From Verrucomicrobiota bacterium (GTDB taxonomy: Bacteria; Verrucomicrobiota; Verrucomicrobiia; Limisphaerales; UBA9464), in NCBI GenBank assembly GCA_025354845.1, contig JANXMD010000748.1, positions 1-33,503 of the forward strand: a DNA stretch of 33,503 nucleotides. The letters run 5' to 3'. Position 1 is the stretch's first letter; every line of letters begins with the position of its first letter. A program made the position numbers and the translations under genes. The notes beneath the pieces are model-generated. The model worked only from the letters and a program-made list of their open reading frames with translations. It had not been told where the DNA came from and did no database searches. Positions 6,851 to 25,464 of this stretch are shown here, one piece after another.

Positions 6851-7519
6851 TCAGTCTTGGATGAAGTAGCTGAGATTCTCCAATTCGATGGCTAGGTTCA
6901 CGTTGTTCACCATCACGTTCTCGGGAACCGAAAGCATGGCGGGGGAGAAATTCAGAATGCCGGCGATGCCCTGGCCGACAAGCTGATTGGCCACCTCCTG
7001 TGCCGCCGCCGCGGGCACGGTCAGGATCGCCATCCGAACCCCGCGCTCTTGAATCACGGTGGCGAGTCGATCCATCGGATGGAGTGGCGTGCTGATTGGC
7101 TTTTCCCGGTGCCGCCGCGGTTCCTGGTCAAACGCGGCGACGATTTCGAACCCCTCCTGCTCAAATCCCCGGTAGCTCAGGAGGGCCGTACCGAGATTGC
7201 CTACACCCACCAGCACCACCGGTTGCAGCCGGTTGGTGCCGAGGAGATCGGTGATCATGGTGGCCAGCTGATCCACATCGTAGCCGAGGCCGCGGGTGCC
7301 GAACTGGCCGAAGTAGGTGAGATCCTTGCGGAGCTGGGTGGGTTTGACCCCGGCCGCACGGGCGAGCGCCTCGCTGCTGACCGTCTGGAGCTGGTTCTGA
7401 CGCAGTCGCTGCAGGCAGCGAAGATAGACCGACAGCCGGTAGATAGTTTTCCGGGGGATTTCAGGACGGCCCAATTTCTTCACGTGCGCCAACGTTAGGG
7501 AATGCACGTGGCCGGGCAA
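6851..7519 (-). CDS. rex: redox-sensing transcriptional repressor Rex
   Basis: It has a winged-helix N-terminus (IPRKTIYRLSVYLRCLQRL...SSEALARAAGVKPTQLRKDLTYFGQFGTRGLGYDV) and a Rossmann NAD(H) domain (VVLVGVGNLGTALLSY). The start is uncertain: TTG at 7519 in the track, or an alternative GTG at 7483. Confidence 0.88.
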   Translation of the reverse strand: MPGHVHSLTLAHVKKLGRPEIPRKTIYRLSVYLRCLQRLRQNQLQTVSSEALARAAGVKPTQLRKDLTYFGQFGTRGLGYDVDQLATMITDLLGTNRLQPVVLVGVGNLGTALLSYRGFEQEGFEIVAAFDQEPRRHREKPISTPLHPMDRLATVIQERGVRMAILTVPAAAAQEVANQLVGQGIAGILNFSPAMLSVPENVMVNNVNLAIELENLSYFIQD

Positions 7520-10403: not shown

Positions 10404-10580
10404 GCGGGCTTGGAGCCCATACTCGGTGGGTGTGGGCTGATGTCAAAAACGGAGCGCGGGCGTTCGGTATTCAAATGCGGTCCGGGAATCGGTCGCAAAG
10501 GTTCCCGCGGTCGGGTTTATGGCAGGCAGTGGCATGCCCGGGAATTGACCTTCCACACGACCCCTAGGCAGACTGTCGCA

Positions 10581-12209
10581 ATGCCTGAATCCATCGGCAA
10601 CGGGACCGCGACCGCAGGGCAGCCAAAAACTGCCGTGCGGTGGAATGTGCCGTTTTTGCTGATGCTGGCGGGCCTTTGGATCTGGGCGGTTTCCATCAAT
10701 TATCCGTTTTGGGACACCGACCCCAATTACTCCTTCGGATTCGTGGTACCGCCTTTGGTGGTATTCTTTCTGTGGAAGCGACTCGGGAGTGAGCCGGAAT
10801 CCTTCTGGAATTTTCTGCCTGACTCAGGAAAACGGTCCGCCCTGACGCCCCTGCTGTTGATCCTTCCGGGATTTGCGTTGTTTCCGGTGGAAGTGTACCG
10901 GATCGAGTATCACCAGTCGGGTATCGTGCTCTGGGCGATCAATCTGGCCATGGTGGCCTACACGATTGCGGGCGCCCGGTGGCTTGGAGGCGGCCGCCTC
11001 CTTTCGCGGGTTCTGTTTCCCGTCCTCTTCTTCCTGACCGCGGTGCCGTGGCCGGCCAAGGTTGCGGTTCCGTTTCAACAGATGCTGATGACGGGCGTGG
11101 CCCAGGTCGTCGCTGAACTCCTGTTGTGGTGCGGCATTCCGGTCAGCCTGGATGGTGCGGTGTTGCATTTGACCAAGGGCACGGTCGGGATCGTGGAGGC
11201 GTGCAGCGGCATCCGCTCCCTGCAGTCCGGCCTGATGGTCAGCCTCGCCGTGGGTGAATTGCTCGGCCTGACTCGGGCCCGCCGGACTGGGTTGGTGGGC
11301 TTCGCGATCGGGTTCGCCCTCGTCAGCAACCTGGCGCGGACCTTCACCCTGTGCTGGATCATGGAGCATCAGGGCGATCAGGCGATGCACCACTGGCACG
11401 ACCGGGTGGGAAACATCGCGATGTATTCGCTCTATGCGCTCATCTATCTGGTGGGAAAGCTGCTCGAGCCCAAAGGGGGGGCTCCCTGGCCAGATGGCTC
11501 AGGAAGCTGGACCGAACGGGCGAGGCGACTGCGCTGGACCGGGCTGCCCGACATCCGCCCGCTGCTGGCCGTTTTCGCGGGTACCTTTGTCGTCGTGCAC
11601 AGCTGGTATTTCGTCCTGAAGCTTCACGCGAAGCCGCAAACCACTCCGTACTTCACGCTGCGTCCGGGTGGGGAGACCAATGGGTTGGTTCGGATGGAAT
11701 TTGACGAGGAGGTCTGGCGTCGGCTGGGTGCCGACTCGGGGGAACAAATCCGGAAAAAAACCGGCCTGGCGCCCCTCGGAATCGTCGATGCGTACCATCT
11801 CTTCTGGCGGCCTTCGCCCATGAGCAAGATTGCACTGCATCATCGCCCAGACGTTTGCATGCCCGGAAACGGCTGGGTGCAAAAAGGGGAGGTGGAGACC
11901 GTGAATCTGGTCGTCGACGGCCAGCCCCTTCGTTTCCTGGTGTTCCGGTTTGAACGGGGCGAGACCAAGGCGGTGCAAGTCTGGGGCGTGTGGCGTAACG
12001 GGCAGCCGGTGGAGATGGACTACTCCAACCACCTGACGGCCCTGCCCGAGAAATATCGCCCGATTCCCAGCGAACGCCATCTCATGGGCGTCGAATTGGT
12101 CTCGCTGTTCATCCCCTATCAGGGCAACAACATCCCTGCCGAAGCGCTGTTTCGGACGCTGATGCCGGAGCTGTTCTCCTATCACGCCCCGGTCGCCGAG
12201 TCCCGATAG
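10581..12209 (+). CDS. exosortase fused to a C-terminal EpsI-family domain
   Basis: The N-terminal ~300 aa is polytopic and carries exosortase signatures: FFLTAVPWP, GIVEACSGIRSLQSG (Cys codon 11202-11204), SNLARTFT (Arg) and HHWHDRVGN (His). After one more TM segment, the last ~220 aa carries the EpsI hallmark HHRPDVCMPGNGW. The ATG at 10581 is preferred because the track start at 10227 overlaps the divergent gene. Confidence 0.85.
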   Translation: MPESIGNGTATAGQPKTAVRWNVPFLLMLAGLWIWAVSINYPFWDTDPNYSFGFVVPPLVVFFLWKRLGSEPESFWNFLPDSGKRSALTPLLLILPGFALFPVEVYRIEYHQSGIVLWAINLAMVAYTIAGARWLGGGRLLSRVLFPVLFFLTAVPWPAKVAVPFQQMLMTGVAQVVAELLLWCGIPVSLDGAVLHLTKGTVGIVEACSGIRSLQSGLMVSLAVGELLGLTRARRTGLVGFAIGFALVSNLARTFTLCWIMEHQGDQAMHHWHDRVGNIAMYSLYALIYLVGKLLEPKGGAPWPDGSGSWTERARRLRWTGLPDIRPLLAVFAGTFVVVHSWYFVLKLHAKPQTTPYFTLRPGGETNGLVRMEFDEEVWRRLGADSGEQIRKKTGLAPLGIVDAYHLFWRPSPMSKIALHHRPDVCMPGNGWVQKGEVETVNLVVDGQPLRFLVFRFERGETKAVQVWGVWRNGQPVEMDYSNHLTALPEKYRPIPSERHLMGVELVSLFIPYQGNNIPAEALFRTLMPELFSYHAPVAESR

Positions 12210-12244
12210 CCTCCAGTTTCCAACCCTTCTCAGATCCTCCTGCC

Positions 12245-14017
12245 GTGGATTCCCCGCCTTCCCCAAATCGTCGACCCTCTGGATCGCGGGGTCGCGTGCG
12301 CGTGGTCAAAACGACCGGGGTTCTCGCCGATGCCACGATCTGGATCCGCCGGATCGTCCTGTTTCTGGGAGTCGTCCTGGTCCTGGCTGGCATTGCAAAA
12401 CTGGCCTACGGACCGGCAAAGGTGGTTTGGGGGCGCCGACACGCCCGGGCCTCGGAAGATCTCTGGCGAAGCGGGGATGGTGCCGCCGCCAGTCAGCGCC
12501 TGCGTGCGGCCTTGCAGTTCGCGCCGCGAGATCCCGACGTGCTGCGCTGGGCGGCTCAATACTGCGCCAAGACGGGCCTGCCCCAGGGAATGATGTACTA
12601 CGAGATGCTGCTGTCCCACCCGGAGGCAACCCGCGAGGACCATGTGGCCTATGCCGAGCTCGCACTTCGCTTCAATCGGTTGGATTTCGCGGGACGCGAG
12701 ATCACCCAATTGCTCGCAAAGGAGCCTGATTCCCAGAAGCTGTTGCTGCTCCTCGTTTCCCAGCAGCGTCAGGCCCGGGATCTCGACGCCGCCGTTCGCA
12801 CTGCCCGCCGCGTCTTGCAACTGAGTCCGGTGGACGAGCAGGCGCAATTCGTTCTGGGGTCTCTCCTGCTTGAACATCGGGCCCACCCCGAGTTGGCCAG
12901 TGAGGGACAGCGTCTGCTGATGGGCGTGGTGGTTTCCCACGGAAACTCATCGATGGATGCGGCTCTGCGTCTCGCCGGCACGCGCGGATTGGAACGAGCG
13001 GATTTGGAAATTCTCAACAAGCTCCTGGTTGATTATCCACCGAAGACGATGACGGACCGACTTCTGGCCATGGATCTCCGGCTCATGGCCAATCCGGCGC
13101 GGAGCAATCAACTGGTTCTCGAAACGGTCCGGTTGGTCGTGCCCGAGTTGAAGACCACCAATGTGGGGGTGGTGGTAAACTGGGCGGTCCAGCGGGGCGG
13201 TGCCGCGCCGCTGCTCGAGGCGCTGCCGATCGGAGCGAATGAAACCAACACCGCGACCCTCTCCCTCCGGGGCGTCGTGCTGGGTCAGATGGCCGAGTGG
13301 AATGAGCTCGATGCGTTGCTGGGGCGCTACGAGTCACGGATGGAGCCGTTCATCGTGGAGAAGCTCAAGGGCCAAGTGGCGCTGGGACGCGGGCGAAATT
13401 CGGATGCCCAGATTCATTTTCAGGCGGCGATTTCAGAGAATCGGGTCACCCCCTTGCAGCTCCGGGCGCTGGGGCGGGAGTTCGAGGGGCTCCACCTTCC
13501 TTTGCTCGCGGCCCAGGCGAACGTCCGCGCGATGGCTCTCGCAAACGAGGGGGGAGATATTTCGACGACCCTGAATGCCGGTCTTGAAGTCCTGCGCCTT
13601 CTGGCGCCGACCGACGAGACAGCCTCGATTCGGGACACGCTCCGGATTCTGAGCAAAGTGCTCCCCGGTGATGATGCCCTGGCCGGGGAGCGTGCGTGGT
13701 ACGATTTACTCTACCGCGAAGACGTGGCGGCCTCGGCGGCGACGGCCGTGCGGCTCCACGCCGCGCATCCCGACGACGTGGCGTGGCGGGTGCTCCTGGC
13801 GCTCGCCGAGCTTCGATCCGACCGACCCGCGGAGGCACTCCAGGTGTTGGAGGAACCGCAGATTGAGTGGGTCAATGCGCGTCCGCGCTGGAAGGCGGTT
13901 TATGCGGCCGCACTCGGAGTCTCGCAGCGGCGCGAGGCGGCTCGGCGATTTGCCTCCCAGATTCCGGCCGGCAGCCTGAAGTCGCGCGAGCAGCAACTTA
14001 TCGAGCCCTGGCGCTGA
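12245..14017 (+). CDS. membrane-anchored TPR-like helical-repeat protein, function unknown
   Basis: 590 aa with one N-terminal TM helix (IWIRRIVLFLGVVLVLAGIAKLAY). The rest is Ala/Leu/Arg-rich helical repeats, for example AASQRLRAALQFAPRDPDVLRWAAQY and DLDAAVRTARRVLQLSPVDEQAQFVLG. It starts 35 nt after the exosortase stop. The GTG start is uncertain. Confidence 0.6.
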   Translation: MDSPPSPNRRPSGSRGRVRVVKTTGVLADATIWIRRIVLFLGVVLVLAGIAKLAYGPAKVVWGRRHARASEDLWRSGDGAAASQRLRAALQFAPRDPDVLRWAAQYCAKTGLPQGMMYYEMLLSHPEATREDHVAYAELALRFNRLDFAGREITQLLAKEPDSQKLLLLLVSQQRQARDLDAAVRTARRVLQLSPVDEQAQFVLGSLLLEHRAHPELASEGQRLLMGVVVSHGNSSMDAALRLAGTRGLERADLEILNKLLVDYPPKTMTDRLLAMDLRLMANPARSNQLVLETVRLVVPELKTTNVGVVVNWAVQRGGAAPLLEALPIGANETNTATLSLRGVVLGQMAEWNELDALLGRYESRMEPFIVEKLKGQVALGRGRNSDAQIHFQAAISENRVTPLQLRALGREFEGLHLPLLAAQANVRAMALANEGGDISTTLNAGLEVLRLLAPTDETASIRDTLRILSKVLPGDDALAGERAWYDLLYREDVAASAATAVRLHAAHPDDVAWRVLLALAELRSDRPAEALQVLEEPQIEWVNARPRWKAVYAAALGVSQRREAARRFASQIPAGSLKSREQQLIEPWR

Positions 14018-14103
14018 TCGGGAAACAGCCGGATTTCCACCCGGGATGAATCCCGCTGTTCACCGGGGTTGAAAAGACCTCCGGCCCGGGCCAGTTTGCC
14101 CGC

Positions 14104-14904
14104 GTGTTCGCCCTGTTTGACGAGCTAAGAAACCCAGCCCTGCTCCTCAGCAACCCCGTGGCATGGGTGCTGATTCCCTTCCAGCTGTGGATGCTGATCG
14201 ATGCCGTGCGCCGCGAGGACTGGATTTGGGCGGTATTCATCTTCATCGCCATGGCGTACTCCTCGGTGCTGCCCATCAGTGCGTTGTTGTACTACTTCAT
14301 GGTGTATCGCGCGCAGGGGCCCGCGGGCGGAGGCGGAGGACGGACGCGCGGGTTTGAATTGCCGGGAGCAGGTACGAGGCGCCGCATTCGTGAATTGGAG
14401 GGACGCATTCACCACCTCGACAAAGCCCGGGACCACCTTGAGTTGGCCGACATCTATTTCAGCCAAGGCAAGCTCCAGTTGGCCGAATCCAGCTATCGTG
14501 CGTCTCTGGAACGCGATCCTTCCGATCGCGACGCGGTGGCCCATCTGGGACAATGCCTGCTACGCTTGGGCCGCGCCGCGGAGGCGTTGCCGATGTTGGA
14601 ACGAGTGACCGCAGACGATTCGCGCCATGACTATGGGCATACCCTCATGGCCCTCGCCGAAACGCAGAGCGCCCTCGGCAATAACGACGGAGCCTTTCAG
14701 ACTTGGCGGCGGGTGTTGGAAAATCACGGGTATGCCCGCGCCCGGGTTCAGTTCTCCGAACTCCTCATGGTTCGCGGGGAACGAGATCGGGCACGCACCG
14801 AGTTGAACGAGGTGATCTCCGACGATCTCCACGCGCCCAAGTTCCAACGGGATCGTGACAAACCATGGGTGCGGCGCGCTCGGACCCTGCTTGGAAAGCT
14901 CTGA
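14104..14904 (+). CDS. membrane protein with a PLDc_N-like two-helix anchor fused to TPR repeats
   Basis: The N-terminus VAWVLIPFQLWMLIDAVRREDWIWAVFIFIAMAYSSVLPISALLYYFMVYR looks like the short membrane domain found at the N-terminus of cardiolipin synthases. A Gly-rich linker and TPR repeats follow (LADIYFSQGKLQLAESSYRASLERDPSDRDAVAHLGQCLLRLGRAAEALPMLE). Confidence 0.65.
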   Translation: MFALFDELRNPALLLSNPVAWVLIPFQLWMLIDAVRREDWIWAVFIFIAMAYSSVLPISALLYYFMVYRAQGPAGGGGGRTRGFELPGAGTRRRIRELEGRIHHLDKARDHLELADIYFSQGKLQLAESSYRASLERDPSDRDAVAHLGQCLLRLGRAAEALPMLERVTADDSRHDYGHTLMALAETQSALGNNDGAFQTWRRVLENHGYARARVQFSELLMVRGERDRARTELNEVISDDLHAPKFQRDRDKPWVRRARTLLGKL

Positions 14905-14905
14905 C

Positions 14906-16054
14906 ATGGACCCAGGTGCCGATCCTGCCCGGGAAGGCCGTTGGCTGAAGAACGGGCTCGCGTATTTCGACTCTCTCGAGCCCGGGCTGGCACGCGCGAA
15001 GCAAAGCATTCGTGTCGAGGTTTATATCATTGGGGACGATTCGGTGGGTCGACGGATTCGCGCGGCCTTGATCGCTGCAGTCGGTCGCGGGGTGCAGGTG
15101 ACTGTTCTCGCCGATGGGCTCGGATCCGCAGAGCTTCCCTCGGGTTGGTGGACACCGCTCGTGAAAGCAGGTGGAGAGGTCCATGTCTTCAACCCCCTCG
15201 CGTCCCGCCGCATTGGCATCCGGGATCACCGGAAGCTGGTTGTGGTGGATGACCGCGTGGCGTGGATTGGTGGGATTAACCTGTCGGATGACTACGCCGG
15301 GGATGGGGTCACCCAGGGCTGGGCCGATTGTGGATTCTGCATCGAGGGAGCCGCCGCGGGGCAACTGTCGAAGGAGTTCGATCTCATGGTTGCTAAATGC
15401 GCCTCCCGTCAGCCGAAGGTGGTCGTTGGCCGCATCCGTCGTGGCTCCCGCCCTCCGGCGCGCCTGATTGGCAGGGGGCTGGAGTTGATGGTCAGCGGCC
15501 CGGGGCGCATGGCCAACGCCTTCCAAAGATCGCTGCGCGAGGATATCGCCGGTTCACGACAGGTGCAGTTTGCAGTCGCCTACTTTCTGCCCGGATACCG
15601 CATGCGCCAACTCCTCCGTCGTATCTCGATGCGGGGAGCGTCGGTTCAAATCGTCGTGCCGGGACGGACCGATGTGCCGGTTGCCCTTCGTGCGGCTCGG
15701 CATCTCTATTCGGGGCTGATGCGGGCGGGCGTGGAGATATGGGAATATCAGCCGCAGGTGCTCCACACGAAGCTGTTTCTGGCCAATCGCGCAGCCTATG
15801 TGGGCTCATCGAACCTCGACACCCGCAGCCTCCACATCAACTACGAGCTCATGCTCCGATTGACCGATCCGGTGCTGGTGTCGCAGGCGCAATCCATGTT
15901 TGTCGAACTTCTGGAACGGTCAACCCGTGTCGATCCTGTCGTCTGGGCGACCTCGCGTTCCTGGCTCGAACGCTGGCGCGAACAGTGGGCGTTCTGGATC
16001 CTTTCCCGGGCGGATCCCTACGTGACCCGCTGGCTGGCGATGGGTCCGCGCTAG
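14906..16054 (+). CDS. phospholipase D superfamily phosphatidyltransferase with two HKD motifs (ClsB/PssA-like), no TM segment
   Basis: HKD motif 1 is HRKLVVVDDRVAWIGGINLSDDY (His codon 15227-15229). HKD motif 2 is LHTKLFLANRAAYVGSSNLDTRS (His codon 15764-15766). The ATG at 14906 lies 1 nt after the upstream stop (TGA 14902-14904). Confidence 0.85.
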   Translation: MDPGADPAREGRWLKNGLAYFDSLEPGLARAKQSIRVEVYIIGDDSVGRRIRAALIAAVGRGVQVTVLADGLGSAELPSGWWTPLVKAGGEVHVFNPLASRRIGIRDHRKLVVVDDRVAWIGGINLSDDYAGDGVTQGWADCGFCIEGAAAGQLSKEFDLMVAKCASRQPKVVVGRIRRGSRPPARLIGRGLELMVSGPGRMANAFQRSLREDIAGSRQVQFAVAYFLPGYRMRQLLRRISMRGASVQIVVPGRTDVPVALRAARHLYSGLMRAGVEIWEYQPQVLHTKLFLANRAAYVGSSNLDTRSLHINYELMLRLTDPVLVSQAQSMFVELLERSTRVDPVVWATSRSWLERWREQWAFWILSRADPYVTRWLAMGPR

Positions 16055-16076: not shown

Positions 16077-17795
16077 TCAGGCCTGGAACAGGGCTCTCGA
16101 ACGACGGCCCACCAATCGGCGGGCCCCCGCGAGACTCACCGCGAGCAACCCCATGCCGAACAGACCCAGGGCGCAAGCCACTCCGGGCGCACCCGGGTCG
16201 ATGCGGCCCATCAACTGCCAGATTTGCTTGGTGATGGGATAAAACCGGTCGCGCTGGGCGAGGATGAGGCTGTCGCTCACTTCCAGCATGGCGAAGGCGA
16301 AGGTCAGGATCATTCCTGCCATGAGGTGCGCGCCAATCAGCGGAAGCGTAATGCGGAAGAAGGTGCGGACGGGCCCGGCGCCGAGCATGGCGCTCGCCTC
16401 TTCCAGTGCCGGACTCATCTGCTCGAAGCCGGCAAATGCGGCGCGCACCATGTAGGGCAGCCGGCGCACGGCGTAGCTGATCACCAGCAAAAAGGTGGGA
16501 TTGGTCCTGGGATCCAACCAGGCATCGAGCCAGGGATGGTGCTTTTCGTTGACCTCAAACCCGGCGAAATAGCCGAAGGCCAGTACCAGCCCCGGCACGG
16601 CGAGGGGAAGCATGGCGAGGGTGTCGAGGAGACCTGCCAGCTTACCCGCGCGACGGCTGACCAGCCAGGCGATCCCCAAACCGAGGCCCAGATCGAGCAC
16701 GCTGCTGAGACCCGCAAAAACAAAGCTGTTTCGTACCGATGAGGCAGTGAGCCCGTGGCGGGCCACCTCGCGGAAGTTCGAGAGTGTCCACGCGTCAGGA
16801 AGCGGGCTGAAGAACCAATGGCTGGAGAAGGCCACGAGGCCGACGGAGAAGTGCGGCAGCACAGAAACCGCCAGCAGCAGTCCGATCCCGCCCCAAAACA
16901 AGACGGTTCGAATCGGGCGGGCCACCGGCAGTGCCGGACGAGCGCCGCGCATGGGCGCGGGACGGGCGGTTGCGGAAGCGAATCGGCGGGTGGCGAGGAA
17001 GACGCCGGCAATCAGCCCAATAAGGGCCGCGACGAGCACGTAGCCCTGGGAACTGGAATTGAGATCGTTCAGCGAGTCGAAGATCTGCACCGGCACCACC
17101 CGGCTGTATCCGGTGATCAGCGGGGTACCGAGATCGGTGAGGGCTCCGATCCACACCACCGTGGCCCCCGCCATCCACCCCGGGCGAACCAGGGGCAGGG
17201 TGATGGTTCGAAGTTCTCGCCACGCCGACGCTCCGAGGCCGGCCGCGCTTTCGCGAAGCGACGGATCCAGTTGAGTCATCGCCGCAGAGAGAGTGAGAAA
17301 CAAAACGGGATAGAAATGCAGGACCTGAAGCAGGATGATCGCCGGCAGGCCGCCGGAACCCAGCCAGTCGATCGGCGCCTCTGGATTCATCCAGCCGTGA
17401 TGGATCAGAAAGAGATTCAGCGCCCCAAAACGGGCGAAGAGCTGCTGCAGGCCAATCGCGCCAACGAAGGGGGGAAGGAGGATTGGCGCCAGCAGGAGCG
17501 CAGAAAGCTGGGGTTTTCCCGCGAAATCCCAGCGGCTCATCGGCCAAGCCAGCCCGAGCGCGAGCATCGAAGCGAGGGCAACGGTCGTCGTCGCGATGAG
17601 GATTGAATTGAAGAATGCTTCGCGAAGAAGGGGGTTCTCGAATACCTGGGAGAGTGGGTTGACTGCCGTTTCCCCGGGCAGTCCGAAGGAATGCCGAAGG
17701 GTGAATCCGATGGGGTACAGGAGAAACACCGCGAAAAATGCCAGACAGGCGGCGGTCAGAATCGTTTCGGGGAGGCGGCGTGTCCTGCGAGGCAT
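16077..17795 (-). CDS. ABC transporter permease with two fused transmembrane domains (iron(III)/thiamine FbpB-ThiP type)
   Basis: It has two permease halves, each with an EAA-type loop (LRESAAGLGASAWRELRTITLPLVRPG and ALEEASAMLGAGPVRTFFRITLPLIGAH). The track ORF runs up to 18281, but that stretch lies antisense to a tRNA gene. I therefore prefer the ATG at 17795 (MPRRTRRLPETILTAACLAFF...). Confidence 0.8.
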   Translation of the reverse strand: MPRRTRRLPETILTAACLAFFAVFLLYPIGFTLRHSFGLPGETAVNPLSQVFENPLLREAFFNSILIATTTVALASMLALGLAWPMSRWDFAGKPQLSALLLAPILLPPFVGAIGLQQLFARFGALNLFLIHHGWMNPEAPIDWLGSGGLPAIILLQVLHFYPVLFLTLSAAMTQLDPSLRESAAGLGASAWRELRTITLPLVRPGWMAGATVVWIGALTDLGTPLITGYSRVVPVQIFDSLNDLNSSSQGYVLVAALIGLIAGVFLATRRFASATARPAPMRGARPALPVARPIRTVLFWGGIGLLLAVSVLPHFSVGLVAFSSHWFFSPLPDAWTLSNFREVARHGLTASSVRNSFVFAGLSSVLDLGLGLGIAWLVSRRAGKLAGLLDTLAMLPLAVPGLVLAFGYFAGFEVNEKHHPWLDAWLDPRTNPTFLLVISYAVRRLPYMVRAAFAGFEQMSPALEEASAMLGAGPVRTFFRITLPLIGAHLMAGMILTFAFAMLEVSDSLILAQRDRFYPITKQIWQLMGRIDPGAPGVACALGLFGMGLLAVSLAGARRLVGRRSRALFQA

Positions 17796-17923
17796 GCGGA
17801 CGGGCAGGATCTCCCCCGACGATGTCGTCGGCGAGCGGGAAGATGACCAACCTGGCGTCCGAGTTCGGATCACGTGTCGCTTGACGGTCGTCAGGTCGAT
17901 CAGCACGCTTCGGGCGTCGTTGG

Positions 17924-17997
17924 GCGGGCGTAGCTCAATGGTAGAGTTCCAGTCTTCCAAACTGGCCATACGGGTTCGATTCCCGTCGCCCGCTCCA
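17924..17997 (+). tRNA. tRNA-Gly (anticodon UCC) with encoded CCA
   Basis: Folded by hand as a 74-nt cloverleaf. Acceptor stem GCGGGCG/CGCCCGC, D arm GCTC-AATGGTA-GAGT, anticodon stem CCAGT/ACTGG with loop CTTCCAA (anticodon TCC). T arm ACGGG-TTCGATT-CCCGT, then discriminator T and CCA. Confidence 0.93.
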
Positions 17998-18141
17998 GTC
18001 ACGTTCAGTCCGCGTTGAGCGTTTTCCAATGCCAGGGTCTCGGCCCCGGCTGGAAATGAGAAGGGCGCGGATCGGCAGGTGCCGTCTGGTTTCAAATCGG
18101 CAGTCTCGGCGCTCCGTTCCTCCATACTTCCCTCTTCTCTC

Positions 18142-18357
18142 ATGCCTCCAATTCCTGAAACACCCGACGACGCGTCTCCCCCGAAGCCAAAGCATACGTA
18201 CCGCTCCGAGGAAGATCGTCCGAGTCGCGTGTTCCAGTGGGCGGTCAACCTGCCCGACAAGTTCACGGCGCGAAAGTTCAACGGCTACCAGCTGTTTCTC
18301 GTACTGCTGCTGGGCGGACTGTTCTACGTGCTGGTTCTGGAACGCTTTGGAGATTGA
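18142..18357 (+). CDS. small hypothetical tail-anchored membrane protein
   Basis: 71 aa from the ATG at 18142: MPPIPETPDDASPPKPKHTYRSEEDRPSRVFQWAVNLPDKFTARKFNGYQLFLVLLLGGLFYVLVLERFGD. The N-terminus is polar and Pro-rich, and there is one C-terminal TM helix. Third-position GC is coding-like in the second half. I recognise no family. Confidence 0.4.
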   Translation: MPPIPETPDDASPPKPKHTYRSEEDRPSRVFQWAVNLPDKFTARKFNGYQLFLVLLLGGLFYVLVLERFGD

Positions 18358-18423: not shown

Positions 18424-21400
18424 ATGCGACGCGTGGATTCCGTCACTGGCATGGGCGTCGGTTCTGGCGTCGGCAGTCTCAGTCCTCTTGGGGCCGATGG
18501 ATCGGCGATGATCCGAAAATTGTACGAGACGATGTTCTCCGCCCGGACGGTCGACCAGGTGGAGATGGAACTGGTCAATCGCGGCGAGGCCTTCTTTCAC
18601 GTTGGCGGCGCAGGACACGAGGCCAGCGCGGTGCTTGCGGCACATTTGGGGCCGCAGGATTGGCTCCACCTTCATTACCGCGATAAGGCATTGATGCTGG
18701 CCCGCGGGGTCTCGGCGGAAATGTTCTTCCACAGTGCGTTGTGCACCGCGGATTCGCATTCTGCCGGACGGCAGATGAGTGCCCATCTCAGCGCGCCGGA
18801 TCTTCACCTGCTCAGCCTCGTGGGTCCGGTCGGCAACAACGCGCTGCAAGCGGTCGGGGTTGCGCAGGAGGTTCGAAATCGAGCCGGGTCACCGGTCGTG
18901 GTTTGCTCGGTTGGGGATGGAACGAGCCAGCAGGGGGAATTTCTGGAGGCGGTGGCGGAGGCAGTTCGATCCCGCGCTCCGGTGCTGTTCTGGATCGAGG
19001 ATAACGGGTTGGCGATTTCAACCCACACCCGCGGTGCCACGCTGTACGATCTTCCCAGTGGACCCGCCTCTGAGTTTCTCGGGCTGCCCATTCACCGGCT
19101 CGACGGTCGGGATCCGCTGTCCTGCCTGCGGACTGCTGGGGAGTTGGTGGAATCGATTCGCCGGACCCGCGGTCCGGTGTTGGCCGTGTTCCGCGTCGAA
19201 CGATTGACGCATCACACGAATGCCGACGACGAACGGGTGTATCGAAGCGAGTCGGAGCGCCGCGAAGCTCGGACGGTGGCCGATCCGTTGTCGGCCATGC
19301 GCGCGGCGGTGCTGGGATCTGGGGTTGAGGCGCAGGAACTGGACGCACTCGAGGCTCAGTGGATTTTGAACGTCCGTGCCGCCGCGGAGCGGGCGTTGCG
19401 GTCCCCGAATCCGGCAGTCAACCTGGACGCACGAGCCCCCTTACTGCCCAACTGCGACGCGCGCCCCGAGCAGACGGGCGCCGGGCAGGCCGCGGATGCG
19501 CGTCGCACCACCATGCTGGAGGCGATGCGCGAGGTGCTTCGGCTTCGCCTGCACGCGGATTCACGGGTGACGCTTTCGGGACAGGATCTCGAGGATCCCA
19601 AGGGGGACGTCTTTGGGCTCACCCGCGGGTTGTCCACGACGTTTCCGGGACGCGTGCGAAATTCGCCCCTGGCCGAGAGCACGATCGTCGGGGTGGGAAT
19701 CGGCCGGGCCCTTGCCGGCGGTCGCCCCGTGTCCTGCATTCAGTTCGCTGATTTTCTTCCGATCGCCTTCAATCAGATTGCGAGCGAGATGGGATCGATG
19801 TTCTGGCGTAGCGTCGGCGGATGGCGCGTCCCGATGATCCTGATGGCGCCTTGTGGTGGCTATCGTCCGGGCCTTGGCCCCTTTCATGCGCAGACCTTCG
19901 AATCGCTGCTGGCCCACGTTCCCGGCATTGATGTCGCGATTCCGAGCAATGCGGGGGATGCCGCTGGCCTGCTGAATGCGGCGTTCGAGTCCGGCCGCCC
20001 GACCGTGTTTCTGTATCCCAAGGTCTGCCTCAACGACCCTTCCCTGGCCACGTCGGGCGATCTCGCCGGGCATTGGGTGAAGCCTGGCGTCGCGCGCCGG
20101 ATTCGTAACGGCAATGACCTGACTCTCGTCACGTGGGGGGGCACGGTTCCGCTGTTGTCGCGGGTCGTTGAACTGCTCCATGCGGCCGGAGTCCAGGTGG
20201 ATTTTCTCGATCTCCGAACCGTGAGCCCGTGGGATGCGGAGGCCGTGGTGGAAAGCTCGGAACGCACCGGTCGACTTTTGGTGGTGCATGAAGACAATCT
20301 CACCTGCGGGTTTGGCGCCGAGGTGCTGGCGACGGTGTTGGAACGGTCGAAGCGTCCGGTTCGCGCCCGACGCGTAACCCGGCCCGACACCTATGTTCCG
20401 TGCAATTATGTGAACCAGCTCGAGGTGCTGCCCGGAATCCGGCGGATCTTGCAGGCGGTCTCCGAGTTGTGCGGGCTTGAGGTCACCTGGGCTCCTGAGG
20501 CGGTTGCGGACCCTGGAATGTTTCTTTTGGAAGCCGTGGGATCGAGCCCTGCCGATCAGACCGTCGCGGTGGTGGACTGGAAGGTTCGCGAGGGTCAGTC
20601 GGTGACCGCAGGCGAGTTGCTCGCGGACTGCGAGGCGGACAAGGCAACCTTTGAACTGCGGGCCCCTGTATCGGGTGTCATCCGCGATCTTCGGGCGCAG
20701 GATGACCGCGTTCCGGTCGGCACCTTGCTGGCACGGATTGCCACTGAAAGGGCAGCGCCGGCGTTGCCCCGACGTACTCCGGTCGAGCCGGTACCGGCGC
20801 TCATCCGCAAGCAGCGTGTTCCAGCAGGTGGACCTCTGGAGCACGCGCCCACACCGTTGGCGGTGCCGGCCAGGATCGATGTTTCGGACTTCGTGGTGGG
20901 GATTGCCGCGGTCGCTGCCGTTCCTGCGGGTCGGATTGTGACCAACGCGGAATTGGTGAGGCGCTTTCCCGGCCGGACTGCGGCCGACATTTTGCAGCGA
21001 ACCGGAATTGAATCGCGACCACGGCTCGACGTCGGCGAATCGGTGGTGTCCCTCGCGGCGGCGGCGGCCCGAAAGGCGCTGCAGGAATCCGGACTCGAGG
21101 CCTCATCGCTCGACGCGATCTTTGTCAGTACGAGCTCCCCAGTCTCTCTCAGCCCGAGTCTCGCCTGCCTGCTTCATCATGAACTCGCACGAGACGGAGC
21201 CATTCGTGACCTGCCGGCGGTCGACCTCCTGGCGGCCTGTACTGGGTACCTCTACGCGCTGCAATCGGCGCATGATTTTTGCCGGGCGCGTCCCGGTGCA
21301 CGCGTGCTGGTGGTGACCGCGGAGGCCATGAGCACCTACACCGACCCGGATGATTTCGACACCGCAATTGTCTTTGCCGACGCCGCCACCGCGACTGTCG

Positions 21401-21855
21401 TGGTGGGGCCGTTGGCCCCGGGATTCAACCAGGCTCGAGCCCACCTGCATCGGCCGGTGCTCAGCGCCCGCGGCGAAGATGGCACCATCCTGAACCACGG
21501 GCGACGGGAGCATCCCGAGGTCAACATGGACGGGTTGAAGGTGTTCCCCATGGCGGTCCGGCAGCTGATCGCGCTCATGAAGCAGGCCTGCGAGGAATGC
21601 CAGGTGCCCATGGAGTCCCTCGAGTATATCATTCCGCACCAGGCAAACGGTCGAATTCTCGACGCGGTGGATCAACGGCTCCGCCTGCCTACCGGCCGAT
21701 TGGTCAATCGGGTGCGTCATCTCGGGAATTCCAGCAGCAGCACCATTCCCTTGGTTTTGGCGCAAATCTTGTCGGAATCCCCCGTGGGACGCGCCGGATT
21801 ATGCGCCTTCGGCGGTGGATTCACCTTCGGGGCGGCCATTTTGGAATTCCGTTAA
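18424..21855 (+). CDS. four-module fusion: 2-oxoacid dehydrogenase E1-alpha, E1-beta, lipoyl domain and FabH-type 3-oxoacyl-ACP synthase III
   Basis: A single uninterrupted 1143-codon ORF. E1-alpha spans about aa 29-330 (nt 18508-19413) and has the TPP motif GDGTSQQGEF...LFWIEDNG. E1-beta spans about aa 362-690 (nt 19507-20493: SPLAESTIVGVGIGRALAGGRPV, FADFLPIAFNQI, LRTVSPWD). The lipoyl domain spans about aa 699-773 (nt 20518-20742: VVDWKVREGQSVTAGELLADCEADKATFELRAPVSG, Lys codon 20641-20643). A Pro/Ala-rich linker covers aa 774-820. KAS III spans aa 821-1143 (nt 20884-21852), with Cys in DLLAACTGYLYAL (21238-21240), His in IIPHQANG (21637-21639) and Asn in HLGNSSSSTIP (21727-21729). The true start may be the ATG at 18508 (MIRKLYETMF). 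Confidence 0.85.
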   Translation: MRRVDSVTGMGVGSGVGSLSPLGADGSAMIRKLYETMFSARTVDQVEMELVNRGEAFFHVGGAGHEASAVLAAHLGPQDWLHLHYRDKALMLARGVSAEMFFHSALCTADSHSAGRQMSAHLSAPDLHLLSLVGPVGNNALQAVGVAQEVRNRAGSPVVVCSVGDGTSQQGEFLEAVAEAVRSRAPVLFWIEDNGLAISTHTRGATLYDLPSGPASEFLGLPIHRLDGRDPLSCLRTAGELVESIRRTRGPVLAVFRVERLTHHTNADDERVYRSESERREARTVADPLSAMRAAVLGSGVEAQELDALEAQWILNVRAAAERALRSPNPAVNLDARAPLLPNCDARPEQTGAGQAADARRTTMLEAMREVLRLRLHADSRVTLSGQDLEDPKGDVFGLTRGLSTTFPGRVRNSPLAESTIVGVGIGRALAGGRPVSCIQFADFLPIAFNQIASEMGSMFWRSVGGWRVPMILMAPCGGYRPGLGPFHAQTFESLLAHVPGIDVAIPSNAGDAAGLLNAAFESGRPTVFLYPKVCLNDPSLATSGDLAGHWVKPGVARRIRNGNDLTLVTWGGTVPLLSRVVELLHAAGVQVDFLDLRTVSPWDAEAVVESSERTGRLLVVHEDNLTCGFGAEVLATVLERSKRPVRARRVTRPDTYVPCNYVNQLEVLPGIRRILQAVSELCGLEVTWAPEAVADPGMFLLEAVGSSPADQTVAVVDWKVREGQSVTAGELLADCEADKATFELRAPVSGVIRDLRAQDDRVPVGTLLARIATERAAPALPRRTPVEPVPALIRKQRVPAGGPLEHAPTPLAVPARIDVSDFVVGIAAVAAVPAGRIVTNAELVRRFPGRTAADILQRTGIESRPRLDVGESVVSLAAAAARKALQESGLEASSLDAIFVSTSSPVSLSPSLACLLHHELARDGAIRDLPAVDLLAACTGYLYALQSAHDFCRARPGARVLVVTAEAMSTYTDPDDFDTAIVFADAATATVVVGPLAPGFNQARAHLHRPVLSARGEDGTILNHGRREHPEVNMDGLKVFPMAVRQLIALMKQACEECQVPMESLEYIIPHQANGRILDAVDQRLRLPTGRLVNRVRHLGNSSSSTIPLVLAQILSESPVGRAGLCAFGGGFTFGAAILEFR

Positions 21856-21940: not shown

Positions 21941-23179
21941 ATGGCGTTGCTCAACGAGAACTATCTCAAACTGAAGGCAGGGTACCTCTTTCCGGAAATC
22001 GGCAGGCGGGTGAAGGCGTTTACCGAGGCCAATCCCGAGGCGGCAAAACGGCTCATCCGATGCGGTATCGGCGACGTGACTGAGCCGCTGCCCCCGGCGG
22101 TTGTCGCGGCGTTGCATCGCGCCGTGGATGAAATGGCCCAGCGCTCCAGCTTTCGCGGCTACGGTCCGGAGCAGGGCTATGACTTCCTGCGCTCGGCGAT
22201 CGCCCAGAACGACTACCGCGCCCACGGTATCGAAATCGCCGATGACGAAATCTTCGTTAGCGACGGCTCCAAATGTGACTGCGGGGCCATCCTCGACATT
22301 CTGGGGGACCGGAACCGAATCGCCATCTCGGATCCGGTGTATCCCGTGTATGTCGATACCAATGTCATGGTGGGGCATACCGGCGCCTCGGACGCTTCCG
22401 GTGCCTACGCCGGGCTGGTGTATCTGCCGTGCACGCCGTCCAACGGATTCATTCCGGAGCCTCCGCAGGAAGCGGTTGACGTCGTCTACCTCTGCTCCCC
22501 CAACAACCCAACTGGGGCTGCGGCAAGTCGCGCTCAGCTCGAGGCTTGGGTCGCCTACGCGCTCAAGCATGGAGCGCTGTTGCTCTTTGATGCCGCCTAT
22601 GAGGCCTACATCACCGAACCGGGTGTACCGCATTCGATTTACGAGATTCCCGGTGCCCGGGACTGCGCGATCGAGTTCCGCAGCTTCTCCAAGAATGGCG
22701 GATTCACCGGCACCCGCTGCGCGTTCACGGTGGTGCCCAAAAGCCTAAAGGGTCGCACCGCAAGTGGCGACCAACTCCCCTTGCATCCCCTGTGGCTGCG
22801 TCGGATGACCACCAAGTTCAACGGGGTTCCTTATATCGTTCAGCGAGCCGCTGAGGCGCTGTACTCCCCGGACGGAAAGTCCCAGGTTCGCGATCTCATC
22901 CAGCACTACCTTGGAAACGCCGCGGTCTTGGTTGCCGGGGCTCGGGCCGCGGGACTCGAGGTCTTTGGGGGGGTGAATGCCCCTTATATCTGGGCAGCCA
23001 CGCCGGCCGGAATCACCAGTTGGCAGGCCTTTGATCGCATCCTGGGCGATGCCCACGTGGTTATCACGCCGGGAAGCGGCTTCGGTTCCAAGGGGGAGGG
23101 CTATTTTCGCGTCAGCGCCTTTAATTCTCGGGTGAACGCGGAGGAGGTCGCCCGCAGGATTCAACAGCTGAAGTGGTGA
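21941..23179 (+). CDS. dapL: LL-diaminopimelate aminotransferase
   Basis: 412 aa, starting [27 protein letters not shown]...[12 protein letters not shown], with the PLP lysine region [17 protein letters not shown]. Length and termini are typical of DapL. Confidence 0.9.
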
Positions 23180-23273: not shown

Positions 23274-24665
23274 TCAGGTGGTGAGCTGGCTGAGACGCCC
23301 GGTGCTATCGCCAAACCGCTCCGCCTGGACTCCCATTCGATCCAGCATCGAGAGGAACAGGTTGGCCATTGGAGTTTCCTTGGGAACGCGGATATGGCGT
23401 CCCGTCTGGATCGAACCACCGCCCCTTCCGGCCACCAGCACCGGCAGATTCTCATGGGCGTGGGCATTTCCGTCTGCCAACCCGCTGCCATACACGATCA
23501 TGGATTGATCCAGCAGCGTGCCCGAGCCCTCGCGGATCGATTTCAATTTGTTCAGGAAGTAGGCGAACTGCTCCATGTGGAAGCGGTTGATCTTCGCAAT
23601 CTTGGCTTTCTTCTCGGGATCATTCTGATGATGGGAGAGCGTATGATGCCCTTCGGGGACGCCAATCTGGGGATAGGCCTCGTCGCTGCCGTCATGTTTC
23701 ATGACGAAAGTCGCCACGCGGGTGGCGTCGGTTTGGAAGGCTAGCGCGAGGACGTCGAGCATCAGGCGGGAGTGGGGCGCGAAATCCGGACGGTTGCGGT
23801 CGTTCTTCGGGATTCCGGTCGGCTTTTGGAACCCTGGCAGGTCCTTGCCCGCGTTTTTCGCCAACTCAATCCGGCGCTCCAAGTCCCGAACCGAGGTCAA
23901 ATACTCGTCCAATTTTCGCTGGTCGGTCTTCCCTAGCTTGGAATTCAGCGAGCGTGCGTCTTCCAGCACAAAGTCCAGGATGCTCTTTTCAGCGCGTTCC
24001 CGCCGGATTCGGCGCTCCAGCGTCTCCTCGGGATTTGCAGAGGCGAATAGCCGATCGAAAGCGAGGGCTGGGTCCACTTCCGGAGGCAGGGGAGAGGAGG
24101 GTGTCCTCCAGGCGACGTTGAACGAGTAGGCACAGCTGTACCCGGAGTCGCAGTTTCCGGAGGTCTGTCCGCGGTCGCAGCCCAGTTCCAGGGAAGCGAA
24201 TCGGGTCTCCCGGCCAAGCCGCTGCGCGGCGACCTGATCCACCGAGACGCCGGCATGGATGTCCACGCCGTTGGTTTTGCGGATCCGGGTGGAGGTTAGC
24301 CAGGTCGCCGAAGCCCGGGCGTGATCCCCGGCTCCATCCATTTTGGCGCGGCCCGAATCTTGGGTGAGCCCGGAGAGGACGCTGAAGTCCGACTTCAGAC
24401 CCGCCAGCGGCTCCAAGATCGTCGGTAGATCAAAATCCGAGCCGACGGTCTTGGGAGTCCAGTCCGCCATGTTGACCCCGTTCGGCACATAGAGGAATGC
24501 CATGCGTCTCGGCGCGGATCCCACCGCGCCCGAAATGCCTGGGATGGAGGCGTCGGCCAACGATTCCAACGGCGAAACCGATTCCAACGCAGGCAGGGCC
24601 ATGAGTGTGCCGAGTCCGCGCAAAAACTGCCGCCGGGCCACAGGAAAGCTCTTGTTCATAGGCAT
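23274..24665 (-). CDS. DUF1501 domain protein (sulfatase/alkaline-phosphatase-like fold) with a twin-arginine signal
   Basis: 463 aa. The N-terminus MPMNKSFPVARRQFLRGLGTLMALPAL is Tat-like. The body has typical DUF1501 blocks (GAGDHARASATWLT, SGYSCAYS, FVMKHDGSDEAYPQIGVPEGHHTLSHH, IVYGSGLADGNAHAHENLPVLVAG). Confidence 0.85.
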   Translation of the reverse strand: MPMNKSFPVARRQFLRGLGTLMALPALESVSPLESLADASIPGISGAVGSAPRRMAFLYVPNGVNMADWTPKTVGSDFDLPTILEPLAGLKSDFSVLSGLTQDSGRAKMDGAGDHARASATWLTSTRIRKTNGVDIHAGVSVDQVAAQRLGRETRFASLELGCDRGQTSGNCDSGYSCAYSFNVAWRTPSSPLPPEVDPALAFDRLFASANPEETLERRIRRERAEKSILDFVLEDARSLNSKLGKTDQRKLDEYLTSVRDLERRIELAKNAGKDLPGFQKPTGIPKNDRNRPDFAPHSRLMLDVLALAFQTDATRVATFVMKHDGSDEAYPQIGVPEGHHTLSHHQNDPEKKAKIAKINRFHMEQFAYFLNKLKSIREGSGTLLDQSMIVYGSGLADGNAHAHENLPVLVAGRGGGSIQTGRHIRVPKETPMANLFLSMLDRMGVQAERFGDSTGRLSQLTT

Positions 24666-24798
24666 TTGGAAATGCTTGAGGTGGGAATGTAGGCTAGGCC
24701 CGTCCTTTCACAAAACAAGCCAAGACCTGAAAAAGCCGACGCTACCGAGCCGCAGATCTTCAACATCAAGGAGGTACAAATTATTTTTGTGTTTTCTG

Positions 24799-24827
24799 TT
24801 GACCCTAGGGCGTCTTTCGGTTGAAAT
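24799..24827 (+). promoter_or_regulatory. candidate sigma70-type promoter for the PEP-CTERM gene
   Basis: TTGACC (24799-24804), a 17-nt spacer, then TGAAAT (24822-24827). It lies in an AT-richer intergenic stretch about 57 nt upstream of the ATG at 24884. Matched to the consensus by eye only. Confidence 0.3.
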
Positions 24828-24883
24828 TGCCCCAGAAGTTGGTGCGAGTGGACCAACCTGAACTCAAAGATAAACCGTAAAAC

Positions 24884-25429
24884 ATGAAAAAAGTACTCAT
24901 CCTTGGGGCTGCCGTTGCTAGCGTGGTCGCTGCGAACGCTGCTCTTCTCACCGTGGACTTCGTGGGTGGCTCTGGTGGCCCTGGCCAAGAGGTTCCTGCC
25001 GTTACTGCGCCGGGAGCTTCGCTCTCTGCGAGTTCTGGGTTCATGTACTTCAACGAAAGCTCGCTTGCCCTTTCTATCGGCAACGTGCTGTACAACAACC
25101 TGTCGGGTCCTGCGACTGCTGCTGGGTTGTACAACGCTGGTGCGGCCGCCAATGGTCCTAAGTTCGCTGACCTCACCGTCACGACCTTGGTTCCGGGCTC
25201 CACCTCCGGTCTCCTGAGTGGCGTTGTGTCCCTCGGTTCCATCGGCTATCAGCAGCTCCTCTTGGGCAATCTGTACATCAACGTCCTGACCTCCAAGAAC
25301 GCCACTGGCGAAGTGCGTGGTCAGCTCGGTCTGACTGGTGGCAGCATCCCTGAACCCGCTGAGACCGCCGCCGTTGTCGGCCTCGGCCTCGCTGGCTTTG
25401 CTCTCTGGCGCCGTCGCCAGGCTAAGTAA
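24884..25429 (+). CDS. secreted CHRD-like protein with a PEP-CTERM sorting signal (exosortase substrate)
   Basis: It has a signal peptide (MKKVLILGAAVASVVAANA) and CHRD-like segments (EVPAVTAPGASLSAS..., LYINVLTSKNATGEVRGQL). The C-terminus IPEPAETAAVVGLGLAGFALWRRRQAK is a PEP motif, a TM helix and a basic tail. Confidence 0.85.
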   Translation: MKKVLILGAAVASVVAANAALLTVDFVGGSGGPGQEVPAVTAPGASLSASSGFMYFNESSLALSIGNVLYNNLSGPATAAGLYNAGAAANGPKFADLTVTTLVPGSTSGLLSGVVSLGSIGYQQLLLGNLYINVLTSKNATGEVRGQLGLTGGSIPEPAETAAVVGLGLAGFALWRRRQAK

Positions 25430-25464
25430 GCCATCGGAGACCTGAGTTTCAGGTCTATCCACTT

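Follow-up and report, generated by a model that had tools for sequence, protein, structure and literature searches.

How does a 2-oxoacid dehydrogenase pass on its acyl group when the lipoyl domain is followed not by an E2 acyltransferase core, as in the canonical complexes, but by a ketosynthase? This question is raised by a gene in a 33,503-nucleotide stretch of DNA from a Verrucomicrobiota bacterium (assembly GCA_025354845.1, contig JANXMD010000748.1, positions 1 to 33,503), the whole of which is referred to here as the window. The gene encodes a single chain of 1143 aa, in which the E1 alpha and E1 beta modules of a 2-oxoacid dehydrogenase are followed by a lipoyl domain and by a FabH-type beta-ketoacyl-acyl carrier protein (ACP) synthase III (KAS III). 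On balance, the pattern of residues kept and lost slightly favours a direct transfer, in which the lipoyl arm would acylate the active-site Cys939 and KAS III would condense the acyl group with malonyl-ACP, with both E2 and coenzyme A (CoA) bypassed.

Two sets of relatives were compared with the window protein: 121 close relatives and a distant set of 36 full-length fusions, taken from representatives at 50 % identity. Counts out of 37 refer to the query and the 36 distant fusions.

Domain architecture and absence of an E2 core

The originally predicted domain order, from the lipoyl domain through a Pro/Ala/Arg-rich tether to KAS III, was confirmed with Pfam, and the predicted linker string is present in the protein. 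The gene and its modules are as follows.

18424..21855, + strand: E1alpha-E1beta-lipoyl-KAS III fusion gene, 1143 aa plus stop (open reading frame (ORF) and Pfam)
18526..19416, + strand: E1 alpha-like, thiamine diphosphate (ThDP)-binding module (E1_dh, residues 35-331; Pfam); its nearest solved relatives are branched-chain 2-oxoacid dehydrogenase (BCKDH) E1 alpha subunits
19510..20421, + strand: E1 beta-like module (Transket_pyr, residues 363-533, and Transketolase_C, residues 555-666; Pfam)
20518..20742, + strand: lipoyl domain, residues 699-773 (Pfam and AlphaFold2)
20743..20895, + strand: flexible Arg/Pro/Ala/Val-rich tether, residues 774-824 (model confidence, pLDDT, <50 at 798-819)
20896..21852, + strand: KAS III (FabH-type) condensing domain, residues 825-1143 (Pfam, NCBIfam, and Foldseek)

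In the 1143-aa protein, Pfam matches were obtained to E1_dh (E 6.6e-36), Transket_pyr (E 6.2e-24), Transketolase_C (E 8.6e-26), Biotin_lipoyl (PF00364; residues 714-772, E 2e-12), ACP_syn_III (934-994), and ACP_syn_III_C (1056-1141). There was no match to the E2 core (2-oxoacid_dh, PF00198) or to the peripheral-subunit-binding domain (PSBD; E3_binding, PF02817) in this protein, even at E<=1. Residues 825-1142 match positions 5-321 of the 322 in the FabH profile PRK09352 (NCBIfam), therefore there is no space for a cryptic E2 core of ~230 aa. An AlphaFold2 model, for which 44 homologues were the input, has a mean pLDDT of 85.7, with disorder confined to residues 1-24 and 798-819. In the PDB, Foldseek matched this model only to FabH folds (template modelling (TM) score on target 0.91-0.93) and to E1 folds; a chloramphenicol acetyltransferase-like (CAT-like) E2 fold was not among the matches. 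A hidden E2 within residues 774-1143, which the original prediction had raised as a possibility, was thus found by none of Pfam, NCBIfam, and Foldseek.

The original prediction also reported that the window holds no E2 core, PSBD, E3 (dihydrolipoamide dehydrogenase), or lipoate ligase. This stands, with none found by Pfam among the 20 large ORFs of the window and with both the E2 motif 'DHRxxDG' and the E3 redox-disulfide motif absent from a six-frame scan of the window, in which the sole lipoyl-type motif is that of the fusion itself. With neither E2 core nor PSBD, the fusion is not a canonical 2-oxoacid dehydrogenase complex. The fusion gene is genuine, beyond chance or misassembly; an assembly artefact does not account for it, because at least 583 species-level genomes (one genome per species scanned) encode the same fusion.

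Replacement of the CoA adenine site in the fused KAS III

In E. coli FabH-CoA structures, the adenine is hydrogen-bonded to Thr28 and stacked between Trp32 and Arg151, and the pantetheine of CoA is held by Arg36, Asn210, and Asn247 (PMC4606726). The equivalent residues were mapped by alignment of the excised KAS domains, cross-checked by HMMER alignments. At the adenine contacts, the window protein has the following.

20974..20988, + strand: Arg851 and Asp855, where E. coli FabH has Thr28 and Trp32 (alignment)
21355..21357, + strand: Phe978, where E. coli FabH has Arg151, the other adenine face (alignment)

The replacement residues at these three positions are present in 118-121 of the 121 close relatives (Asp in 118, Phe in 121). 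Likewise, the fused KAS III has Leu, Val, or Met in place of E. coli FabH Asn210 and 'ADAAT' in place of the 'GDGAG' loop. The same mapping comes from independent HMMER alignments with two proteins that retain the Trp and the Arg, B. subtilis FabHA and V. cholerae FabH. Among the representatives at 50 % identity, Trp32 and Arg151 equivalents are both present in none of the 36 full-length fusions, compared with 45 of 67 FabH-length proteins.

Based on these replacements, the CoA nucleotide site appears to have been dismantled across the fusion clade and the change to have been maintained since. The domain also scores under the curated FabH cut-offs of NCBIfam (PRK09352, 234.9 vs 249; TIGR00747, 201.8 vs 292.1), and on its CoA contacts and these scores the fused KAS III would not be classed as an acyl-CoA-primed FabH. 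Residues W42, R46, and R161 of M. tuberculosis FabH presumably correspond to E. coli W32, R36, and R151, going by a numbering offset of 10 and not by alignment. Mutant structures at these M. tuberculosis positions exist in the PDB (2AJ9, 2AHB).

Conservation of the three active centres

The codons that had been predicted for the lipoyl Lys and the active-site Cys are exact. These and the other residues expected to act in catalysis, lipoylation, or ACP docking are as follows.

18913..19005, + strand: ThDP/Mg2+ motif, G164-D165-G...D193-N194 (G164 and N194 in 37/37 fusions)
19213..19215, + strand: His264 in 'THHTNADD', aligned with human BCKDH 'GHHSTSDD' (37/37)
19675-19677, + strand: Glu418, invariant; matched from motifs to the ThDP-activating Glu
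19885-19887, + strand: His488, invariant; matched to His146beta' from motifs only
20641..20643, + strand: Lys740 (AAG), predicted lipoylation site in 'CEADKATFE' (codon read)
21238..21240, + strand: Cys939 (TGT) in 'AACTG', active-site nucleophile (Cys112 in E. coli FabH); invariant
21637..21639, + strand: His1072, equivalent to E. coli FabH His244; invariant
21652..21654, + strand: Arg1077, equivalent to E. coli FabH Arg249; 121/121 close relatives
21727-21729, + strand: Asn1102, equivalent to E. coli FabH Asn274; invariant

The Cys-His-Asn triad of KAS III is invariant in the 121 close relatives and in 36/36 distant fusions, and the domain does not look catalytically dead, as the original prediction had allowed that it might. 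At the Arg1077 position the distant fusions have 33 Arg and 3 Lys; the E. coli equivalent, Arg249, is taken here to be the ACP-docking residue. From this triad and the retained equivalent of Arg249, KAS III is predicted to be condensation-competent.

The fused E1 half likewise appears to be competent. Residues H65, Y85, R86, G164, N194, H264, D268, E418, and H488 are kept in 37/37 fusions, and the human BCKDH segment that aligns with the His264 region includes His291alpha. According to the title of PDB entry 1OLS, His291alpha and His146beta' act in the reductive acylation of human BCKDH. In the fusion model, the TM score on target for the T. thermophilus E1b beta subunit is 0.93 (Foldseek), and the PDB ranking of the E1 alpha module places BCKDH (1um9, 1.5e-36) ahead of pyruvate dehydrogenase (PDH; 9e-20).

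K740, the predicted lipoylation site, does not vary among the close relatives. Of the 37 distant fusions, 36 have the Lys, and its context there is E-x-[DSNE]-K-[AS] and never the biotin-type M-K-M. In the 121 relatives the link from E1beta to the lipoyl domain is short and constant (14-17 aa), and the tether from the lipoyl domain to KAS III is 40-69 aa long and variable in sequence, a length and variability that are typical of swinging-arm linkers. Judged by these residues, all three active centres, in E1, the lipoyl domain, and KAS III, have been maintained together across the family.

The start of the tether carries one conserved motif.

20767..20796, + strand: PRRTPVEPVP, residues 782-791 (R784 in 121/121, P786 in 98 %)

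A short beta-strand is predicted after this motif (AlphaFold2). The motif, which is no PSBD, may serve as a docking peptide. 'PRRxPxEP' was considered as a universal tether motif and was rejected, being confined to near relatives; distant clades have an analogous '...TRENPGxPVITG' segment at the same place in the tether.

The E1 substrate is probably larger than pyruvate, because the E1 modules are nearest to branched-chain E1s, none of the 36 fusions has a Phe where E. coli FabH has Phe87, and Akkermansia has branched-chain membranes. The Phe87 residue presumably caps the acyl pocket of the E. coli enzyme, and its replacement in all 36 fusions (Phe in 0/36) hints at a primer larger than acetyl. 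In Akkermansia membranes, ~92 % of the fatty acids are branched-chain (PMC9328018). Based on these comparisons, a short 2-oxoacid, branched-chain or other, is the most likely substrate, and it could differ between phyla.

Distribution and variants of the fusion

An identical domain set is present in 120/120 clusters at 90 % identity among the matches listed (53-93 % identical to the query), and neither PF00198 nor PF02817 occurs in any of these 120 clusters. The window has the look of a genome from the Planctomycetota-Verrucomicrobiota group, and the closest named relatives among the matches listed are verrucomicrobial. The best 80 of the at least 583 genomes with the fusion are from Spirochaetota (22), Planctomycetota (21), Verrucomicrobiota (20), Actinomycetota/Thermoleophilia (4), Kiritimatiellia (3), and others. 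Complete genomes with the fusion include OZ271836.1 (Alkalispirochaeta), OZ247499.1 (Pirellulaceae), and OZ245007.1 (Nitrospirales). Within the 50 %-identity library, the most divergent KAS III domains from full-length fusions share ~31 % identity with the query. A single clade of the neighbour-joining tree (midpoint rooted, no bootstraps) takes in 53 of 56 fusion KAS domains and none of the 47 FabH-length proteins with the Trp32/Arg151 signature. Taken together, these comparisons indicate a large and old family that is under selection and very widely and vertically distributed.

Neighbouring genes were compared in the best 80 of the at least 583 loci, with the ORFs clustered into families and motifs searched within 10 kb. 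There is no conserved neighbour family in these 80 loci; the commonest is aconitase (15/80), in spirochaetes only, and the rest are housekeeping genes. The E2 motif was found within 10 kb of the fusion in 0/80 loci, an E3-like motif in 2/80, and an ACP gene nearby in 1/80; the window has none of the last, including when the scan was extended to ORFs below 90 aa. Since no neighbour is conserved, the protein would seem to be self-contained, with its other needs met by housekeeping genes elsewhere.

One relative extends the architecture. P0141 (1942 aa; L084, 10001-15829, GCA_029777335.1) is an E1alpha-E1beta-lipoyl-KAS III-ketoreductase (KR)-ACP protein in one chain, in which the lipoyl Lys and the triad are present and Trp32 and Arg151 are absent. 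From its domains, this appears to be a polyketide synthase (PKS)-like megasynthase primed by a keto-acid dehydrogenase module. A KR and an ACP after KAS III are what would be expected if the KAS III product is 3-oxoacyl-ACP; they would make little sense downstream of a mere acyl-CoA-forming transferase. No Pfam match was found for the unassigned segments of P0141, including a C-terminal one of 259 aa. The gene stands alone, adjoining AbiEii and DUF6088 genes.

At another locus (L081, 44-2030), a KAS III ORF with the fusion-type signature has a frame open to the contig edge and is probably a truncated fusion. Next comes an 84-aa ACP gene (PP-binding, E 5e-12), which overlaps this ORF, and then a 246-aa ORF that Pfam does not match; in this lineage the module may have a carrier protein of its own.

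Some members of the fusion family depart from the usual residues. Trp32 is kept and Arg151 lost in P0191 and P0194, Arg151 is kept and Trp32 lost in P0222, and Asn replaces the lipoyl Lys in P0163; intermediate forms, decay of the copies, or errors in sequencing could account for these. Candidate split forms, with separate E1-lipoyl and KAS III genes, were not upheld: the short proteins with the fusion signature that were checked (P0121, P0133, and P0230) all begin within 21-43 nt of the end of a contig, to which their frames stay open, and are truncated fusions or undecidable. Proteins of fusion type and intermediate length begin inside the E1 domains. The 'uncultured Akkermansia sp.' label of one metagenome-assembled genome with the fusion (L016, CAZDYB010000325.1) was rejected as evidence for the gene in A. 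muciniphila; the label may be unreliable, since the nearest proteins are environmental sequences and there is no named Akkermansia isolate among the homologues.

Proposed mechanism and alternative explanations

The original prediction proposed that Cys939 is loaded directly, without acyl-CoA, and this is somewhat favoured by the replacement of the CoA-adenine residues and the retention of the ACP-docking Arg across the clade. In the first step of such a mechanism, the fused E1 alpha-beta, with ThDP, would decarboxylate the 2-oxoacid, and in the second it would reductively acylate the lipoyl group on Lys740 of the same chain. The lipoyl domain, ~15 residues from E1beta and ~50 flexible residues from KAS III, would then swing to the entrance of KAS III, where Cys939 would be acylated by the acyl-dihydrolipoyl thioester in place of the acyl-CoA that serves an ordinary FabH. 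In the fourth step, malonyl-ACP would dock (Arg1077), be decarboxylated (His1072, Asn1102), and condense with the acyl-Cys, giving a 3-oxoacyl-ACP that would enter type II fatty-acid synthesis. Finally, a free dihydrolipoamide dehydrogenase, acting as it does on the glycine-cleavage H protein, would re-oxidise the dihydrolipoyl arm in trans. Summed up, and without CoA, the steps would give 2-oxoacid + malonyl-ACP + NAD+ -> 3-oxoacyl-ACP + 2 CO2 + NADH.

Steps one, two, and four would follow from established family chemistry and the intact residues. The transfer from the arm to Cys939 and the re-oxidation in trans are what we infer, the latter by analogy. The H protein is a lipoyl carrier without PSBD or E2 core that is re-oxidised by freely diffusing dihydrolipoamide dehydrogenase, and it is the model for this last step; unlike the fusion, it is a separate small protein and carries an aminomethyl group, not an acyl thioester. 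We also infer a role of the fusion in bulk lipid synthesis.

Several observations weigh against direct transfer from the lipoyl arm. No E3 gene was found in the window, and the lipoyl-lysine arm is shorter than the phosphopantetheine arm. The Fisher p of 9e-13 for the Trp32/Arg151 contrast carries no correction for phylogeny, and the loss of these residues maps essentially to one clade, making it a near-single evolutionary event. Of the FabH-length proteins, 22/67 also miss one or both residues, although several of these short proteins are truncated fusions. The specificity of the E1 goes no further than being closer to BCKDH than to PDH by score, and every NCBIfam match of the fusion is under its curated cut-off, the equivalogs far under. 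Equivalents of the pantetheine contacts Arg36 and Asn247 are kept in the window protein, so that a pantetheine thioester could still enter the fused KAS III; these residues would, however, be needed for the ACP arm anyway.

The retention of the pantetheine contacts also bears on whether the gene is no more than a fusion of consecutive pathway enzymes, which are common. The E1-lipoyl part would then use a separate E2 core and E3 to make acyl-CoA, the KAS III would take acyl-CoA from solution, and the fusion would serve co-expression or proximity. The E2 searches spanned the window and 80 loci, leaving room for an E2 in trans elsewhere in the genome, but the E2 motif is absent within 10 kb at every one of those loci and there is no PSBD to recruit E1 or the lipoyl domain to an E2 core. 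In addition, the equivalents of Thr28, Trp32, and Arg151 are all replaced, with the Trp and Arg pair in 0/36 fusions. Simple co-expression would not require a lipoyl domain sandwiched between E1 and KAS III, though the Lys of this domain persists in 36/37 lineages. This explanation is therefore considered unlikely. It is decidedly unlikely that KAS III is instead a non-condensing acyltransferase replacing E2, the alternative offered in the original prediction; the acyl group would then pass from lipoyl to Cys939 and on to CoA or holo-ACP, with acyl-CoA or acyl-ACP as the product. The KAS III does occupy the exact position of E2, and some KAS III-like proteins, DpsC and CerJ, act in this way. 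In favour, too, the ThDP/lipoyl module of QncN/QncL/QncM delivers its unit to an ACP (PMC6335953). The triad in the known acyltransferases of KAS III type is altered (loss of Asn or His, or Cys to Ser), whereas that of the fusion is intact, including the invariant His and Asn of malonyl decarboxylation. CoA would be an unlikely acceptor given the loss of the adenine site, and the KR-ACP extension of P0141 implies a 3-oxo product for reduction.

The chemistry could also be as proposed and the role different, with the fusion priming a specialised lipid or polyketide-like metabolite and a normal FabH providing housekeeping initiation. The PKS-like form of P0141 and the ACP gene that follows the probably truncated fusion at L081 are consistent with this, and many planctomycetes are not known for branched-chain fatty acids. 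However, there is no biosynthetic cluster in the window or the 80 loci, where the neighbours are housekeeping genes that are not conserved, a dedicated ACP is adjacent in only 1/80, and the distribution is very wide and vertical. Verrucomicrobia such as Akkermansia, furthermore, have membranes dominated by branched-chain fatty acids (PMC9328018). A specialised role thus seems improbable. Direct transfer from the lipoyl arm to Cys939 would carry a broader consequence, for which the chances are a little short of even: a widespread and unrecognised enzyme class, with a lipoyl arm as ketosynthase acyl donor, that would be the main and perhaps only fatty-acid initiator in many Verrucomicrobiota, Planctomycetota, Spirochaetota, and other phyla and that in some lineages is built into PKS-like megasynthases (E1-lipoyl-KS-KR-ACP, with KS the ketosynthase).

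Relationship to known systems

A close functional parallel is the BCKDH complex together with FabH in Bacillus and Staphylococcus. The fusion is like this pair in its E1 chemistry, lipoyl carrier, and KAS III triad, and the overall conversion proposed, 2-oxoacid to 3-oxoacyl-ACP, is the same. It differs in being a single chain without E2 core or PSBD and with the CoA adenine site dismantled, and it probably skips the acyl-CoA intermediate; it resembles the BCKDH complex and FabH collapsed into one chain, minus E2 and CoA. For Akkermansia, it has been assumed that BCKDH-derived acyl-CoA feeds FabH (PMC9328018).

In the quinocarcin system QncN/QncL/QncM, and in SclQ1-4, a ThDP module, a lipoyl domain, and an acyltransferase pass a C2 unit to an ACP (PMC6335953). 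Like the fusion, QncN/QncL/QncM have a ThDP-dependent E1-like module with a covalent lipoyl domain feeding carrier-protein biosynthesis and not CoA. QncL retains an E2-type acyltransferase that performs transfer only, whereas the fusion has KAS III, which is expected to form a C-C bond. The Qnc genes are inside a natural-product cluster; in contrast, the fusion gene is alone.

The fused E1 alpha-beta protein named '2-oxoisovalerate dehydrogenase E1 component' (JGI) has the same N-terminal domain order, with alpha and beta in one chain; the name spans the first ~690 residues of the fusion and ignores the lipoyl and KAS III domains. Other database names for the fusion are 'transketolase', 'thiamine pyrophosphate-dependent enzyme', and 'beta-ketoacyl-ACP synthase 3'. 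For the lipoyl segment, the best full-protein family match is PRK14875 (NCBIfam), the AcoC-type acetoin dehydrogenase E2. In AcoC-type E2 proteins, the lipoyl domain is followed by an alpha/beta-hydrolase-like domain and not by a CAT-like core, which is a precedent for a lipoyl domain with no canonical E2 core after it. Unlike the fusion, AcoC has a partner of a different fold, makes acetyl-CoA, and is not fused to E1 or a ketosynthase. DpsC and CerJ have the FabH fold and take their acyl group from a phosphopantetheine-bound donor, not from free short-chain acyl-CoA, and their triad is often altered; in the fusion the donor would be the lipoyl arm and the triad is intact.

No published description of the E1-lipoyl-KAS III architecture was found in open-access and bioRxiv full text, and publication elsewhere is possible. 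The architecture is new, and the acyl hand-off is probably new too. If the proposed mechanism is correct, this would be the first 2-oxoacid dehydrogenase system to run without an E2 core and the first ketosynthase to take its primer from a lipoyl thioester. Such a mechanism would run counter to the textbook view, repeated in recent verrucomicrobial lipid papers, of an obligatory acyl-CoA route for keto-acid primers and overturn it, would explain fatty-acid initiation in several large and poorly studied phyla, and would correct thousands of mislabelled database entries. It would also provide a compact one-gene module for synthetic biology, by which amino-acid-derived keto acids could be fed into fatty-acid or polyketide synthesis with the CoA pool untouched.

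Gene start and surroundings in the window

The fusion gene has more than one potential start.

18424 (M1), 18451 (M10), and 18508 (M29), + strand: in-frame ATGs of the fusion gene

The true start may be M29 (ATG at 18508), because residues 1-24 are disordered in the model and the homologues align from approximately residue 18-33. No clear Shine-Dalgarno sequence or sigma-70 promoter was found near the start of the fusion, and a promoter and terminator scan around the gene was uninformative.

Between the fusion and an ABC permease gene upstream of it lies a tRNA-Gly(TCC) gene (17924-17997, + strand). The permease ORF, of 734 aa on the minus strand (16077-18281), runs through the tRNA gene, so the permease must in reality start downstream of that gene, and Pfam matches the ORF only from residue 255 on. 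Approximately 2.4 kb upstream of the fusion is a two-domain PLD-type protein (PLDc and PLDc_2; 14855-16054, + strand), probably a cardiolipin or phospholipid synthase; this lipid gene is not conserved beside the fusion in other loci. On the other side, a class I/II aminotransferase (21941-23179, + strand) starts 86 nt past the fusion stop, but across the 80 loci it is not conserved beside the fusion; its N-terminus may resemble that of LL-diaminopimelate aminotransferase.

Further away are an exosortase (660 aa, EpsH family) and, after it, two TPR proteins (10227-14904, + strand), which suggests a PEP-CTERM/exosortase sorting system. A Rex-like protein (Put_DNA-bind_N and CoA_binding; 6851-7519, - strand), probably a redox-sensing repressor, adjoins a 950-aa PSCyt1-PSCyt2-PSD1 protein (7551-10403). 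At E<=0.001, Pfam matches none of three sizeable ORFs of 374, 520, and 268 aa (259-2912 and 24656-25462), of which the first two share positions 1350-1383. The window also encodes DUF1552 proteins, shikimate dehydrogenase, a prepilin peptidase, and lamin-tail-domain proteins (Pfam).

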